Shown here: one piece after another, positions 2,282 through 56,015 of the stretch | Numbering within the stretch: position 1 is the stretch's first letter | How the letters are laid out: each line of letters begins with the position of its first letter | Assembly: GCF_003334255.1 (NCBI RefSeq) | Contig: NZ_QOWU01000011.1 | Length of the DNA: 64,000 bases | From: Escherichia coli | GTDB taxonomy: Bacteria; Pseudomonadota; Gammaproteobacteria; Enterobacterales; Enterobacteriaceae | Strand: one strand, 5' to 3' | Translations under genes and position numbers: made by a program | The notes under the pieces: generated by a model | Told to the model about the DNA's origin: nothing | Seen by the model: only the letters and a program-made list of their open reading frames with translations | Databases searched by the model: none

Positions 2282-3571
2282 ATGGAAACGACTCAAACCA
2301 GCACGATTGCGTCGAAAGACTCTCGTAGTGCCTGGCGCAAGACAGACACCATGTGGATGCTGGGCCTTTACGGCACGGCAATCGGCGCGGGCGTGCTGTT
2401 CCTGCCAATCAACGCCGGTGTTGGCGGTATGATCCCGCTGATCATCATGGCTATCCTTGCGTTCCCGATGACGTTTTTTGCTCACCGCGGCCTGACTCGC
2501 TTCGTACTGTCTGGTAAAAACCCGGGCGAAGACATCACCGAGGTTGTAGAAGAACACTTTGGTATTGGCGCAGGTAAACTGATTACCCTGCTCTACTTCT
2601 TCGCTATCTACCCGATCCTGCTGGTTTATAGCGTGGCAATCACCAATACCGTTGAAAGCTTCATGTCTCACCAGCTGGGTATGACGCCACCGCCGCGTGC
2701 GATTCTGTCGCTGATCCTGATCGTGGGTATGATGACCATCGTTCGCTTCGGTGAGCAGATGATCGTTAAAGCGATGAGTATTCTGGTATTCCCGTTTGTT
2801 GGCGTACTGATGCTGCTGGCTCTGTACCTGATCCCGCAGTGGAACGGCGCTGCACTGGAAACGCTGTCTCTGGACACTGCATCTGCAACCGGAAACGGTC
2901 TGTGGATGACCCTGTGGCTGGCAATTCCGGTAATGGTGTTCTCGTTCAACCACTCTCCGATCATCTCTTCTTTCGCCGTTGCGAAGCGTGAAGAGTACGG
3001 CGATATGGCAGAACAGAAATGCTCGAAGATCCTGGCATTCGCACACATCATGATGGTGCTGACCGTAATGTTCTTCGTCTTCAGCTGTGTACTGAGCCTG
3101 ACTCCGGCAGACCTGGCTGCGGCTAAAGAGCAGAACATCTCGATTCTGTCTTACCTGGCTAACCACTTTAACGCACCGGTTATCGCGTGGATGGCTCCGA
3201 TTATCGCGATTATCGCTATCACCAAATCCTTCCTCGGTCACTACCTGGGCGCACGTGAAGGCTTCAACGGTATGGTGATTAAATCTCTGCGTGGTAAAGG
3301 TAAGTCTATCGAAATCAACAAGCTGAACCGTATCACTGCGCTGTTCATGCTGGTAACGACCTGGATTGTTGCCACCCTGAACCCGAGCATCCTGGGTATG
3401 ATTGAAACCCTGGGCGGTCCAATCATCGCGATGATCCTGTTCCTGATGCCGATGTACGCAATTCAGAAAGTACCGGCAATGCGTAAGTACAGCGGTCACA
3501 TCAGCAACGTATTCGTTGTCGTGATGGGTCTGATTGCAATCTCCGCAATCTTCTACTCTCTGTTCAGCTAA
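2282..3571 (+). CDS. sdaC: Serine:H+ symporter (HAAAP family)
   Basis: 429-aa polytopic membrane ORF with GGAG RBS; recognised as SdaC; followed by sdaB. Confidence 0.95.
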
Positions 3572-3628
3572 GTCCTTTCGCGCCGCTTTCGGGCGGCGCT
3601 TCCTCCGTTTTAACGCGATGTATTTCCT

Positions 3629-4996
3629 ATGATTAGCGTATTCGATATTTTCAAAATCGGCATTGGCCCTTCCAGTTCTCATACCGTTGGACCAATGAAA
3701 GCGGGTAAACAATTTACCGACGATCTGATTGCCCGTAACCTGCTTAAAGACGTGACCCGCGTGGTGGTTGACGTGTACGGCTCGCTCTCTCTGACCGGTA
3801 AAGGCCACCACACTGATATCGCCATTATTATGGGCCTGGCGGGTAACCTGCCGGATACCGTGGATATCGATTCCATCCCCAGTTTTATTCAGGATGTGAA
3901 TACTCATGGTCGCCTGATGCTGGCAAACGGTCAGCATGAAGTGGAGTTCCCGGTTGATCAGTGCATGAACTTCCACGCCGACAACCTTTCTCTGCATGAA
4001 AACGGTATGCGCATTACCGCGCTGGCGGGCGATAAAGTCGTTTACAGCCAGACTTACTACTCTATTGGCGGTGGCTTTATCGTTGATGAAGAGCATTTTG
4101 GCCAGCAGGATAGCGCACCGGTTGAAGTTCCTTATCCGTACAGTTCAGCAGCCGATCTGCAAAAACATTGTCAGGAAACCGGGCTGTCACTCTCTGGCCT
4201 GATGATGAAAAACGAGCTGGCGCTGCACAGCAAAGAAGAGCTGGAACAGCACCTGGCGAACGTCTGGGAAGTCATGCGCGGCGGTATTGAGCGCGGTATT
4301 TCCACCGAAGGCGTGTTGCCTGGCAAACTGCGCGTTCCACGCCGTGCTGCGGCACTACGCCGGATGCTGGTCAGCCAGGATAAAACCACCACTGACCCGA
4401 TGGCGGTTGTTGACTGGATCAACATGTTTGCACTGGCAGTGAACGAAGAGAACGCTGCTGGCGGTCGCGTGGTGACTGCGCCGACTAACGGTGCGTGCGG
4501 GATTATCCCGGCAGTTCTGGCGTACTACGACAAGTTTATCCGCGAAGTGAACGCTAACTCACTGGCTCGTTACCTGCTGGTAGCCAGCGCCATTGGTTCT
4601 CTTTATAAGATGAACGCGTCGATTTCTGGTGCTGAAGTGGGTTGCCAGGGTGAAGTTGGCGTGGCGTGCTCAATGGCGGCGGCTGGTCTGGCAGAACTAT
4701 TAGGCGCAAGCCCGGCGCAGGTGTGCATCGCGGCGGAAATCGCCATGGAGCACAACCTCGGTCTGACGTGTGACCCGGTCGCCGGACAGGTACAGGTGCC
4801 ATGCATCGAGCGTAACGCCATTGCGGCAGTAAAAGCGGTGAACGCCGCACGTATGGCGCTGCGCCGTACCAGCGAGCCGCGCGTCTGCCTCGATAAAGTT
4901 ATCGAAACCATGTACGAAACAGGTAAAGATATGAACGCCAAGTACCGCGAAACCTCTCGCGGCGGCCTGGCAATGAAGATCGTTGCCTGCGATTAA
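3629..4996 (+). CDS. sdaB: L-serine dehydratase 2 (Fe-S)
   Basis: 455-aa ORF recognised as SdaB; sdaCB operon arrangement. Confidence 0.95.
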   Translation: MISVFDIFKIGIGPSSSHTVGPMKAGKQFTDDLIARNLLKDVTRVVVDVYGSLSLTGKGHHTDIAIIMGLAGNLPDTVDIDSIPSFIQDVNTHGRLMLANGQHEVEFPVDQCMNFHADNLSLHENGMRITALAGDKVVYSQTYYSIGGGFIVDEEHFGQQDSAPVEVPYPYSSAADLQKHCQETGLSLSGLMMKNELALHSKEELEQHLANVWEVMRGGIERGISTEGVLPGKLRVPRRAAALRRMLVSQDKTTTDPMAVVDWINMFALAVNEENAAGGRVVTAPTNGACGIIPAVLAYYDKFIREVNANSLARYLLVASAIGSLYKMNASISGAEVGCQGEVGVACSMAAAGLAELLGASPAQVCIAAEIAMEHNLGLTCDPVAGQVQVPCIERNAIAAVKAVNAARMALRRTSEPRVCLDKVIETMYETGKDMNAKYRETSRGGLAMKIVACD

Positions 4997-5863
<867 letters not shown>

Positions 5864-50431: not shown

Positions 50432-51463
50432 ATGGCGACCATAAAGGATGTAGCCCGACTGGCAGGCGTTTCAGTCGCCACCGTTTCCCGCGTCATTAAT
50501 AATTCACCCAAAGCCAGCGAAGCTTCCCGGCTGGCTGTGCATAGTGCAATGGAGTCTCTTAGCTATCACCCGAACGCCAACGCCCGTGCGCTGGCGCAGC
50601 AGACCACTGAAACGGTCGGTCTGGTCGTTGGTGATGTTTCCGATCCGTTTTTCGGTGCAATGGTGAAAGCGGTCGAACAGGTGGCTTATCACACCGGTAA
50701 TTTTTTATTGATTGGCAACGGTTACCACAACGAACAAAAAGAGCGTCAGGCCATTGAGCAACTGATCCGCCATCGCTGTGCTGCGTTGGTCGTCCATGCC
50801 AAAATGATCCCGGATGCTGATTTAGCCTCATTAATGAAACAAATGCCCGGTATGGTGCTGATCAACCGTATCCTGCCTGGCTTTGAAAACCGTTGTATTG
50901 CTCTGGACGATCGTTACGGTGCCTGGCTGGCAACGCGTCATTTAATTCAGCAAGGTCATACCCGCATTGGTTATCTGTGCTCTAACCACTCTATTTCTGA
51001 CGCCGAAGATCGTCTGCAAGGGTATTACGATGCCCTTGCTGAAAGTGGTATTGCGGCCAATGACCGGCTGGTGACATTTGGCGAACCAGACGAAAGCGGC
51101 GGCGAACAGGCAATGACCGAGCTTTTGGGACGAGGAAGAAATTTCACTGCGGTAGCCTGTTATAACGATTCAATGGCGGCGGGTGCGATGGGCGTTCTCA
51201 ATGATAATGGTATTGATGTACCGGGTGAGATTTCGTTAATTGGCTTTGATGATGTGCTGGTGTCACGCTATGTGCGTCCGCGCCTGACCACCGTGCGTTA
51301 CCCAATCGTGACGATGGCGACCCAGGCTGCCGAACTGGCTTTGGCGCTGGCGGATAATCGCCCTCTCCCGGAAATCACTAATGTCTTTAGTCCGACGCTG
51401 GTACGTCGTCATTCAGTGTCAACTCCGTCGCTGGAGGCAAGTCATCATGCAACCAGCGACTAA
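50432..51463 (+). CDS. galR: Galactose operon repressor (LacI family)
   Basis: 343-aa ORF with LacI-type HTH (MATIKDVARLAGVSVATVSRVINN); recognised as GalR. Confidence 0.95.
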   Translation: MATIKDVARLAGVSVATVSRVINNSPKASEASRLAVHSAMESLSYHPNANARALAQQTTETVGLVVGDVSDPFFGAMVKAVEQVAYHTGNFLLIGNGYHNEQKERQAIEQLIRHRCAALVVHAKMIPDADLASLMKQMPGMVLINRILPGFENRCIALDDRYGAWLATRHLIQQGHTRIGYLCSNHSISDAEDRLQGYYDALAESGIAANDRLVTFGEPDESGGEQAMTELLGRGRNFTAVACYNDSMAAGAMGVLNDNGIDVPGEISLIGFDDVLVSRYVRPRLTTVRYPIVTMATQAAELALALADNRPLPEITNVFSPTLVRRHSVSTPSLEASHHATSD

Positions 51464-51469
51464 CCGCAG

Positions 51470-52732
51470 TTAAAGCAATTCCAGCGCCAGTAATTCTTCG
51501 ATGGTCTGGCGACGGCGAATCAACCGCGCCTGACCATTATCAAACAGAACTTCTGGTAACAGCGGACGGCTATTGTAGTTGGATGACATTGATGCGCCAT
51601 ATGCCCCTGTATCATGCAGTACCAGATAATCACCTGCCTTCACTTCCGGCAAGGCGCGGGTTTCAACATTTCCCCCTTCCTGCTGGGTAAAGACATCGCC
51701 CGATTCACATAACGGTCCGGCGACGACGGTTTCCACCGTTGGCGCGTGTTCCAGAGAACGACCATCAGCTGCCAGGGCACTGATATGGTGGTAACTACCG
51801 TACATTGCCGGGCGCATCAGATCGTTGAACCCGGCATCAACCAGCACAAAGTGGCGGCTCCCCATTTGTTTGACGCTCCGCACCTGAGTAATTAATACGC
51901 CAGACTGCGCTACCAGGAAGCGACCCGGTTCAATTTCCAGTTTCACAGGGTGGCCCAAATGGCGGGCGATTTGCTCACGCGCGGCATTCCACAGACCATA
52001 ATAATGTTCGGTATCAACCGCCTCTTCACCCTGTTGATAAGGAACAGAAAGCCCACCGCCCGCAGAAATAGCCTGTAAATCCTGACCGAATTCGATGACC
52101 TGACGCACCATAGCACCACACACCTGTTCCAGATGGGCATAATCAACGCCAGAACCAATGTGCATGTGAATGCCGACCAGCTGCAGATGATGACGTTGTA
52201 TCACGTCCAGTGCGGCGGGCAGATCGGTGTACCAGATACCGTGCTTGCTGTTTTCGCCACCGGTATTGGTTTTTTGGCTATGTCCGTGACCAAACCCCGG
52301 ATTAACGCGCAGCCATACCCGATGCCCTGGCGAAACCTGGCCCAGTTGGTCGAGCATATCAACAGAACCCGCATTCACCGGAATTTGCAATTCACTGACG
52401 CGTTCAAGCGTCGCCTGATCGATAACATCTGCCGTAAAAACAATATCATCGGGGTGCGTTTGCGGATTGTAACCCGCCGCCAACGCACGCTCTATTTCGC
52501 CTAACGAGACGGAATCCACTTTCACGCCCTGCTCACGCATTAAGCGCAAAATATGAATATTGGAACAGGCTTTCTGTGCAAAGCGCACCACATCAAACTG
52601 TTTCAGCGCTGCAATCTGCCGACGAATAATTTGCGCATCGTAGACCCACACCGGGCAGCCAAATTCAGCGGGCAAACGCAGCAGATTTTCGGCGGTGAGA
52701 TCGGTATCGGTGCTGAACAGTGAATGTGGCAT
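51470..52732 (-). CDS. lysA: Diaminopimelate decarboxylase
   Basis: 420-aa ORF recognised as LysA. Confidence 0.95.
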   Translation of the reverse strand: MPHSLFSTDTDLTAENLLRLPAEFGCPVWVYDAQIIRRQIAALKQFDVVRFAQKACSNIHILRLMREQGVKVDSVSLGEIERALAAGYNPQTHPDDIVFTADVIDQATLERVSELQIPVNAGSVDMLDQLGQVSPGHRVWLRVNPGFGHGHSQKTNTGGENSKHGIWYTDLPAALDVIQRHHLQLVGIHMHIGSGVDYAHLEQVCGAMVRQVIEFGQDLQAISAGGGLSVPYQQGEEAVDTEHYYGLWNAAREQIARHLGHPVKLEIEPGRFLVAQSGVLITQVRSVKQMGSRHFVLVDAGFNDLMRPAMYGSYHHISALAADGRSLEHAPTVETVVAGPLCESGDVFTQQEGGNVETRALPEVKAGDYLVLHDTGAYGASMSSNYNSRPLLPEVLFDNGQARLIRRRQTIEELLALELL

Positions 52733-52853: not shown

Positions 52854-53789
52854 ATGGCCGCCGTTAACTTACGTCATATTGAAATTTTTCATGCGGTAAT
52901 GACCGCCGGAAGCCTGACTGAGGCGGCACACCTGCTACACACCTCACAGCCAACCGTCAGCCGCGAACTTGCGCGCTTTGAGAAGGTGATCGGGCTGAAA
53001 TTGTTTGAGCGCGTACGTGGGCGATTACATCCTACCGTGCAAGGACTGCGTCTGTTTGAAGAAGTGCAACGATCCTGGTACGGACTGGATCGCATTGTCA
53101 GCGCCGCAGAAAGTCTGCGCGAGTTTCGCCAGGGAGAACTGTCTATTGCCTGCCTGCCGGTCTTTTCGCAATCTTTTTTACCGCAGCTCCTGCAACCCTT
53201 TCTGGCACGTTATCCCGATGTCAGCTTAAATATCGTGCCCCAGGAATCACCGCTACTTGAAGAGTGGCTCTCGGCCCAGCGTCATGATTTAGGACTCACT
53301 GAAACGCTCCATACGCCTGCGGGAACAGAACGTACCGAATTACTCTCTTTAGATGAAGTGTGTGTGTTACCTCCGGGTCATCCGCTGGCGGTAAAAAAGG
53401 TATTAACGCCGGATGATTTTCAGGGTGAGAACTACATCAGCCTTTCCCGTACTGACAGCTATCGCCAGTTGCTGGATCAGCTATTTACTGAACATCAGGT
53501 TAAACGACGCATGATCGTAGAAACCCACAGCGCCGCGTCAGTCTGCGCAATGGTACGGGCGGGGGTAGGTGTTTCGGTGGTTAACCCGCTCACCGCACTA
53601 GATTATGCGGCAAGCGGTTTAGTGGTGCGGCGGTTCAGTATTGCGGTTCCGTTCACCGTCAGCCTGATCCGCCCCCTGCACCGCCCGTCATCAGCGCTGG
53701 TTCAGGCGTTTAGTGGGCATTTACAAGCGGGGTTACCGAAACTGGTCACTTCTCTTGACGCTATTTTGTCGTCAGCTACGACAGCATAA
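52854..53789 (+). CDS. lysR: LysR transcriptional activator of lysA
   Basis: 311-aa ORF with LysR-type HTH; divergent from lysA. Confidence 0.95.
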
Positions 53790-54468
53790 AAGCGACAGCA
53801 TCCTCGGCATGGATCGCCGCGGTATCAAACACAGGCAAAACACTGCGCTCTTCTGGCACCAGTAAACCAATTTCTGTGCAGCCAAAAATGACGCCCTGTG
53901 CGCCCTGTTCTGCAAGGCGAGCAATCACTTGCGCATAATAAGCGCGTGACGCTTCGGTAAATTGCCCCAGACACAGTTCTTCAAAAATAATCTGATTAAT
54001 TTTCGCCCGTTCATCCGCTTCAGGAATAAGACAATTGATGGAAAATTGTTCCGTCAGCCGCCCGCGATAAAAATCCTGTTCCATGGTGTAACGCGTACCC
54101 AGCAGCGCCACACGAGTCATTCCGGCCCCGGTAATTGCACGTCCGGTGGCATCCGCAATGTGTAAGAAAGGCAGAGTGCAACGTGACTCAATGGCATCCG
54201 CCACTTTATGCATCGTATTGGTACATAACACAATACCTTCTGCGCCCGCCCGCTGTAAGCCAAGCGCCGCCTCAGCCAGAATGTCCCCGGTTTTATCCCA
54301 TTCCCCGCGACGCTGGCACTCTTCTATTTCATGAAAATCGACGCTATGTAGCAGCACTTGCGCAGAGTGAAGCCCACCAAGCCGCTGTTTAATGCCTTCA
54401 TTTATCAAACGATAGTAAGGAATGGTGGATTCCCAGCTCATTCCTCCCAGCAAACCAATTGTTTTCAT
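53776..54468 (-). CDS. ygeA: Asp/Glu-racemase-family amino-acid racemase
   Basis: 230-aa ORF from ATG 54468 ([15 protein letters not shown]...); 3' end overlaps the lysR 3' end by 14 nt. Confidence 0.85.
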
Positions 54469-54596
54469 TCCTCTCTCCTGATGTGTGTTACCGCAACAAG
54501 GCTGAATAAGGAACGAGACAAACGCCTCAACGGCCAAGTGCCCAATCTCTATTAACGAAAAAAGGGCCGGATGTACAGCACATCCGGCCCGTGAAA

Positions 54597-56015
54597 TCAG
54601 ACGCCGATATTTCTCAACTTCTCGCCTGCCATCAGTTTGCGTTCGATATGTTCCAGCGTGACATTTTTGGTTTCCGGAATGAGCCAGAAAGTAATGCCCA
54701 CAAACGCAATGTTCAGCGCAGTGTAGAGCCAGAACGTACCGGCAGCGCCAATGCTATCAAGCAGTGTCAGGAAGGTCGCGCCGATAATCATATTCGACAC
54801 CCAGTTCGTGGTGGTCGAACAGGTAATACCGAAATCGCGGCATTTCAGCGGCTGAATTTCAGAGCACAGGATCCACACCACTGGCGCGGCGCTCATCGCA
54901 TAACCGGCAATACACATCATCGTCATGCCAACAGAGAGCCAGGACAAGCCACTGGAAGCCGTACCGTTATCAAACTGCATCAGGCAATAGCCCAGCACCA
55001 GAGTGCCTAACGCCATCACGCTGAAACCAATTTTCAGAGCCGGTTTACGCCCTGCTTTATCTACCGTAAACACCGCAATAAAGGTGGCGAACATAAAGGT
55101 CAGCCCTACGACCAGAGTCGCAATCATCTGTTGTTCTGTGGTCGTAAAGCCCGCCATTTTGAAGATACGCGGCGCGTAGTACATGATGATGTTCATACCG
55201 GTAAACTGCTGCATCGCCTGCAACAACATACCGAGAAACACAGCACGACGGACGTTACGGTTGATCTTAAACAGTGCCCAACCGCCCTGTTTTAACTTCA
55301 GGCTTTCACGAATTTCGTTGAGTTCTTCTCGCGCTTTTTCCGACGTATCGCGCAGCATACGCAATACTTCTTCCGCCTCAATATGACGCCCCTTTTCCGC
55401 CAGCCAGCGCGGGCTATTTGGCAGGAAGACTACCAGAATAATCAGCAGAACTGCTGGTAAAGCAAGAACCCCCAACATTGCGCGCCAGTTACCGCTATAA
55501 CTGAACGCTGTATCGGATAAAAACGCCAGCACGATGCCGAGTGTGACCATCAACTGGTACATACTGATCATCTTACCGCGAACGTTTTCACTTGCCATTT
55601 CAGAAAGATACAGAGGAGCGGTGTAAGACGCGATCCCGACAGCAATGCCCAGCACCACACGAGCGGCGATTAACATCTCTACGCTGGTCGCAAAAGCGGA
55701 CCCTATAGAACCGAGTACAAACAGGATGGCCCCCGCCATCAGGCTGTATTTACGCCCCAGGCGGAACGACAGCCAACCATTAAACAGCGCACCAATTGCT
55801 GCACCGAGCATCATGCTACTAACCACCCATTCCTGCAAACGACTGGTCAGCACAAAGTGATCGGTAATGAACGGCAACGCTCCGGCGATTACGCCGATAT
55901 CAAGACCAAATAACAATCCTGCGACCGCAGCAGCTACCGAAACAAACATATTCATACGCCGCGTATCCCGCAAAGAACGTGGCGTTAAAGCAGATTCCGT
56001 ATTGATAGTAACCAT
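54597..56015 (-). CDS. araE: Arabinose:H+ symporter (MFS)
   Basis: 472-aa ORF from ATG 56015 ([15 protein letters not shown]...); the 515-aa track ORF is an upstream extension. Confidence 0.9.

Follow-up and report, generated by a model that had tools for sequence, protein, structure and literature searches.

The two genes examined here, lysR and ygeA, meet tail-to-tail in a 64,000-nt stretch of Escherichia coli DNA (contig NZ_QOWU01000011.1), referred to below as the window. The local gene order, galR> <lysA lysR> <ygeA <araE <kduD, is that of the E. coli K-12-type region, and the region differs from MG1655 at 3 of 7001 bases. Positions in the MG1655 record (NC_000913.3) were converted to window positions by subtracting 2926167. 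The features discussed in the text are collected in Table 1.

Table 1. Features at and around the lysR/ygeA junction, in window coordinates
Feature	Position	Strand	Description	Basis
lysR CDS	52854..53789	+	311 aa LysR-type regulator of lysA; stop TAA at 53787-53789	ORF list, RefSeq and MG1655 annotation, orthologues
ygeA CDS	53776..54468	-	230 aa PLP-independent amino-acid racemase; stop TAG, complement of 53778-53776	ORF list, annotation, PDB matches
Stretch shared by lysR and ygeA	53776..53789	both	14 nt	Direct reading
LysR tail SSATTA	53769..53786	+	Six unconserved codons after ...LDAIL	Junction and C-terminal comparisons
YgeA Phe227-Met228 codons	53785..53790	-	TTTATG; complement CATAAA gives the lysR TAA	
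Untranslated lysR read-through	53790..53923	+	Antisense to the 3' part of ygeA	Composition, PMC7815308, coordinate mapping
Hairpin inside lysR	53586..53617	-	13-bp perfect hairpin without a U tract	Sliding-window folding
araE intrinsic terminator	54554..54590	-	Strong; 12-pair stem and T run, upstream of ygeA	Scan, sequence

The lysR/ygeA overlap in E. coli

Read directly, lysR ends in ...GCT ATT TTG TCG TCA GCT ACG ACA GCA TAA (AILSSATTA*) and ygeA, on the minus strand, in ...GAT GCT GTC GCT TTT ATG CTG TCG TAG (DAVAFMLS*), and the positions of these stops on facing strands therefore leave 14 nt common to both coding sequences. On the plus strand the shared stretch holds two nucleotides of LysR A308 followed by T309, T310, A311 and the stop, and on the minus strand it holds the YgeA stop, S230, L229, M228 and two nucleotides of F227, with ygeA codon positions 1, 3 and 2 facing lysR positions 1, 2 and 3. 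The lysR TAA itself is the complement of the last two bases of the Phe227 codon and the first base of the Met228 codon. With opposite strands, facing 3' ends and 14 nt in common, where at least 1 nt defines such a pair, lysR and ygeA are a convergent overlapping pair.

Identical ends are annotated in MG1655 (lysR 2979021..2979956, ygeA 2979943..2980635) and in a RefSeq PGAP record that is 100% identical to the query stretch (lysR 2555..3490, ygeA 3477..4169). Both ORFs are genuine by these annotations and at the protein level: crystallised chains (5HQT, 5HRA, 5HRC, 5ELL and 5ELM) match YgeA over residues 1-230, down to the final residue (...AFMLS), and LysR aligns at full length, over 1-311 or 1-306, with its orthologues. 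The first-pass annotation had reported a 14-bp convergent overlap that corrected stop positions might abolish; on re-examination both stops were confirmed and the overlap stands. The idea that one stop is wrong, or that one ORF is no real gene end, was rejected as having almost no probability, given that the reading frames of two well-supported proteins fix both stops, that the curated MG1655 record, PGAP, the crystallised chains and the LysR orthologues all agree with them, and that the junction is near-invariant across 5424 genomes. The overlap was also already known, as it stands in the MG1655 reference annotation.

When complete E. coli genomes were compared, the 76-nt junction was found in 5424 of 5426, with at least 99% identity in 4331, and two sampled junction variants retained the 14-nt overlap. 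A non-overlapping variant within the species was considered and rejected: the junction type of E. albertii and of a divergent Escherichia lineage (L003, described below) had no megablast match in the 5426 genomes, a search that a single-base TCG>TAG change on an E. coli background could escape.

Individual strains depart from this picture. In E. coli strain 1428 (L084:1228-1262), a 14-nt tandem duplication, CGACAGCATAAAAG, sits precisely on the junction, between 9-nt direct repeats (CGACAGCAT, window 53779-87 and 53793-801); this strain's LysR is unaltered, its ygeA is annotated as 711 nt with a changed C-terminus, and its overlap is 18 nt. We treated the direct repeat as chance rather than as a signal, as 9-mers recurring no more than 30 nt away begin at 17 positions in the window and the CGACAGCAT repeat is not conserved outside E. 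coli. Strain M160133 (L002:2555-5605) has IS4 inside ygeA and a lysR annotated as frameshifted; loss of both is therefore possible in a clinical isolate.

The pair is the sole overlap among the 10 convergent junctions of the window (gaps of 54, 43, 16, 50, 73, 61, 31, 6, -14 and 32 nt), and 58 convergent overlaps have been counted genome-wide in E. coli (PMC2174442), so that this overlap is uncommon but not exceptional.

Drift of the stop codons across the Enterobacteriaceae

To place the junction in its family, we used a YgeA scan of one genome per species, which gave 80 loci; in 29 of these the gene converging on ygeA encodes a LysR orthologue (80-95% identity), the species set of this comparison being one without Salmonella, Shigella and E. 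fergusonii. The genes overlap in 20 of the 29 loci, by 4 nt in seven (TTAA or TTAG), 6 nt in two, 14 nt in six, 23 nt in one, 27 nt in one, 29 nt in two and 38 nt in one. Another three loci have a gap of 2-4 nt, and the remaining six have an insertion of 62, 110, 500 or about 1372 nt between the genes. The stops thus shift from taxon to taxon, with 23 of the 29 junctions ranging from a 4-nt gap to a 38-nt overlap, which is the pattern expected under stop-codon drift. The comparison shows lysR and ygeA to be essentially spacer-less across much of the Enterobacteriaceae, with exact ends that drift. Among the loci with insertions, those of Cedecea and Enterobacter sp. Ag1 (L018, L020 and L021) have about 1.37 kb between ygeA and lysR (about 3700-5070), presumably containing an extra gene.

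The two proteins behave differently at their ends. The YgeA terminus, ...DAVxFMLS, is conserved among the compared loci, whereas LysR is conserved to ...PL(E/D)A(I/V)L and the residues beyond differ in both sequence and length. The same GCATAAA backstop that closes lysR in E. coli also does so in Citrobacter, Kluyvera, Pluralibacter, Superficieibacter and others. In E. albertii and in L003 (from a record labelled E. coli), codon 306 is TAG in place of the E. coli TCG (53769-71), so that LysR ends after ...AIL and the genes lie 4 nt apart, the downstream TAA being kept in frame as a reserve stop. A single substitution, in one direction or the other, is therefore enough to switch the junction between a 4-nt gap and a 14-nt overlap. 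Both this substitution and the variable ends of the 23 loci point to an origin by shifting stops.

A simple course of events accounts for the E. coli junction. In the reading we favour, two real protein-coding genes have lain tail-to-tail with essentially no spacer since early in the Enterobacteriaceae; without a spacer each ORF stops at the first in-frame stop inside its partner, so that single-base gains and losses of stops move the ends. E. coli lysR, having no stop after ...LDAIL, runs through six extra codons across the last four codons and the stop of ygeA. The TAA at which it ends is held where it is by the conserved YgeA Phe-Met codons, whose complement it forms. The sequence comparisons show each step of this read-through of the tail to a pinned TAA.

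The overlap belongs to a well-described class and is ordinary within it. Like the prokaryotic convergent overlapping pairs surveyed by Lillo and Krakauer (2007, PMC2174442), it joins real genes of opposite strands by a short overlap in phase 1:1, 2:3, 3:2, the commonest phase for convergent overlaps of at least 5 nt; convergent overlaps were attributed in that study to stop-codon mutation, and here too the ends shift by gain and loss of stops, the classic 4-nt TTAA/TTAG form being present in seven related taxa. There is no material difference from that class, the detail peculiar to this pair being the lysR stop pinned by the complement of the YgeA Phe-Met codons.

Search for terminators at the junction

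The overlap had also been said to leave no room for a terminator between lysR and ygeA. This is trivially true, and consensus scans of both strands likewise gave no intrinsic terminator in the junction or for about 100 nt around it; the sole site over that distance is a weak 5-pair match (53904..53890) located in ygeA, upstream of its stop. Over longer distances, the scans gave no terminator-like site at 53789-54800 on the plus strand or at 53776-52733 on the minus strand, and the same scans recovered the strong terminators of araE, kduD, omrA and omrB nearby. Sliding-window folding showed no hairpin followed by a U tract. A hidden intrinsic or bidirectional terminator within the coding ends was rejected, as both scans and folding were blank near the junction. 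Bidirectional intrinsic terminators share with this junction the task of ending two converging transcription units, but they do so with a GC-rich hairpin between an A tract and a U tract, and scans and folding showed none at or near the lysR/ygeA junction, which lacks any intergenic DNA. A known RNA family was rejected as well: Rfam at E <= 1 gave no match at the junction, and two sub-threshold chance hits elsewhere.

Other structures in the neighbourhood were considered individually. On RNA of the ygeA strand, the 13-bp hairpin inside lysR (plus-strand arms CCGCTCACCGCAC...GTGCGGCAAGCGG), the only strong one that folding gave, comes roughly 160-190 nt after the ygeA stop; it is not a canonical terminator, and could pause polymerase or protect a 3' end. 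In Pseudocitrobacter, where the genes are separated by 62 or 110 nt, the spacer was rejected as a terminator, since one locus (L013) has no site and the other (L015) has one weak site inside the end of ygeA. The araE terminator is one-directional, as its hairpin is followed by GTGAAATCAG on the plus strand and has no U tract there. The sole curated Term-seq 3' end in the neighbourhood, 2980766 (-), corresponds to window 54599, the first base of the araE stop codon; it lies 9 nt upstream of the araE hairpin (54590..54564) rather than after its U tract, where the curated Term-seq data list no 3' end.

Rho termination of lysR read-through inside ygeA

An ending for the plus-strand transcript is available from published data. 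Adams et al. (2021) ran DirectRNA-seq in the presence and absence of bicyclomycin and compared coverage over 800-nt windows (PMC7815308); their supplementary file 2 places a Rho termination region, antisense to ygeA, at 2980090 (+) (score 3.79, p = 1.8e-6), across which coverage changes from 73 upstream to 17 downstream without bicyclomycin and from 146 to 129 with it. This coordinate maps to window 53923, 134 nt past the lysR stop, and is coarse because it was drawn from 800-nt windows. The curated Term-seq lists of the same study assign no discrete 3' end to lysR or ygeA, and neither gene is mentioned in the SMRT-Cappable-seq supplements.

The RNA that follows the lysR stop is C-rich and G-poor, with C/G of 1.28-1.73 in 78-nt windows starting 1-79 nt past the stop (~156 nt in total), a signal that is modest and not specific. 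Rho loads on untranslated RNA, and the excess of C over G fits such loading, the composition being rut-like; in the plus-strand scan and the folding, no intrinsic terminator explains the 3' end. By the published bicyclomycin data, lysR transcription does not end at the junction but continues as untranslated, C-rich RNA antisense to ygeA, which Rho ends roughly 130 nt downstream, and the rut-like composition agrees with this. In consequence, the 3' ends of the two mRNAs should overlap.

The locus resembles other cases of Rho-ended antisense read-through in having a bicyclomycin-sensitive drop of plus-strand coverage inside the partner gene and C-rich, G-poor RNA past the stop, with the position at lysR/ygeA being coarse. 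Equivalent Rho regions for galR into lysA and tas into lplT stand in the same table (PMC7815308), which makes ending by Rho the norm for transcripts of this kind around the locus. The galR region (2978071 (+), antisense to lysA, score 7.27; PMC7815308) maps to window 51904. The galR> <lysA pair is itself convergent, with 6 nt between the genes (stops at 51463-51470) and no terminator-like site. Since galR/lysA and lysR/ygeA are both terminator-less, the divergent lysA-lysR pair is flanked on both sides by junctions of this kind.

Read-through antisense, as the first-pass annotation had proposed, is thus backed for the lysR strand by a published, bicyclomycin-sensitive Rho region inside ygeA (PMC7815308). 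Its further step, from the missing intergenic terminator to transcriptional interference, does not follow, because Rho ends transcription inside the partner gene. We put the probability at roughly 85% that the junction is an ordinary convergent overlap produced by stop-codon drift, from which lysR transcripts run on and are ended by Rho inside ygeA.

Possible regulatory coupling of lysR and ygeA

Overlapping transcripts of convergent neighbours are what the excludon concept of Lasa and Toledo-Arana describes, and lysR-ygeA is named among 165 convergent excludons found in at least 50% of 58 RNA-seq sets (ExcludonFinder 2025, PMC12288877, Table 1), as is galR-lysA in the same convergent list. 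Because the coding regions already overlap, this call is nearly automatic and adds little. The listing says nothing on reciprocal regulation of lysR and ygeA: functionally, the concept turns on mutually exclusive expression and on processing by RNase III, and in these respects lysR-ygeA is an unvalidated entry. As a class, excludon pairs show raised synteny, and the p19 dsRNA comparison is given in aggregate only (PMC12288877). Considering this synteny together with the tight junction in 23 of 29 loci, the arrangement may be selected rather than neutral.

If the pair worked as a functional convergent excludon, a gene of the pair would, when transcribed, repress the other by head-on polymerase collision, by RNase III cleavage of the 3'-end duplex or by both, most strongly when arabinose drives araE read-through into ygeA and on into lysR antisense, and arabinose would thereby be coupled to the control of LysR and lysA. 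Besides the published listing and the tightness of the junction, this reading can draw on a minus strand free of intrinsic terminators from the ygeA stop to the lysR promoter region, and on the account of Stringer et al. (2014) as cited in PMC8341724, according to which ygeA is about 50% co-transcribed with araE via partial terminator read-through and is induced 7-fold with arabinose in Salmonella. If both the co-transcription and the induction hold, transcription heading for the 3' end of lysR would rise strongly with arabinose. Our literature search for lysR-ygeA, however, found no reciprocal-expression, dsRNA or RNase III data, and the bicyclomycin study has neither a minus-strand Rho region nor a 3' end antisense to lysR, with read counts as low as 73 per 800 nt (PMC7815308). 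Moreover, insertions of 62 to about 1373 nt are tolerated in six lineages, small gaps occur in three, and strain M160133 has its ygeA interrupted and its lysR frameshifted. The low counts, the tolerated insertions and this strain therefore make a dedicated regulatory role unlikely. Any effect of polymerase collision or of RNase III cleavage of the duplex would, we infer, probably be small under standard conditions, given the weak expression of both genes.

A more specific version of this idea, in which arabinose-induced araE-ygeA read-through antisense crosses lysR and possibly enters lysA, lowering LysR or altering lysA, with the zero-spacer architecture selected for that coupling, strikes us as still more improbable. 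If true, it would wire arabinose availability to lysine/diaminopimelate control.

Less probable again, and very doubtful in our estimation, is a noncontiguous operon ygeA-(lysR)-lysA, in which ygeA transcripts would cross all of lysR antisense and enter lysA. The two outer genes do lie on one strand, enclosing lysR on the opposite one, and the minus strand is free of terminator-like sites over the whole interval scanned. Against this, lysA is driven by its own LysR-dependent promoter, and a C-rich, G-poor stretch lying 130-210 nt past the ygeA stop, with C/G up to 1.8, would favour Rho. The pair is also absent from the three noncontiguous operons reported for E. coli (PMC12288877).

Significance of the junction

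The preferred reading, an ordinary overlap drifted into place and followed by Rho-ended read-through of lysR, assigns the feature to two known types, the convergent overlapping pair and Rho-ended antisense read-through; as a bidirectional terminator it fails. The overlap class, the excludon listing and the Rho region inside ygeA have all been published previously. With a known annotation, a surveyed class and a mapped Rho region, its importance is small, and only a demonstrated arabinose-driven regulatory coupling from ygeA to lysR would raise it. Its modest value is that of a clean textbook case, in which an unconserved protein tail enters the conserved end of a neighbouring gene until it reaches a stop that the neighbour imposes, and it also illustrates how having no room for a terminator is solved by Rho acting inside the partner gene.
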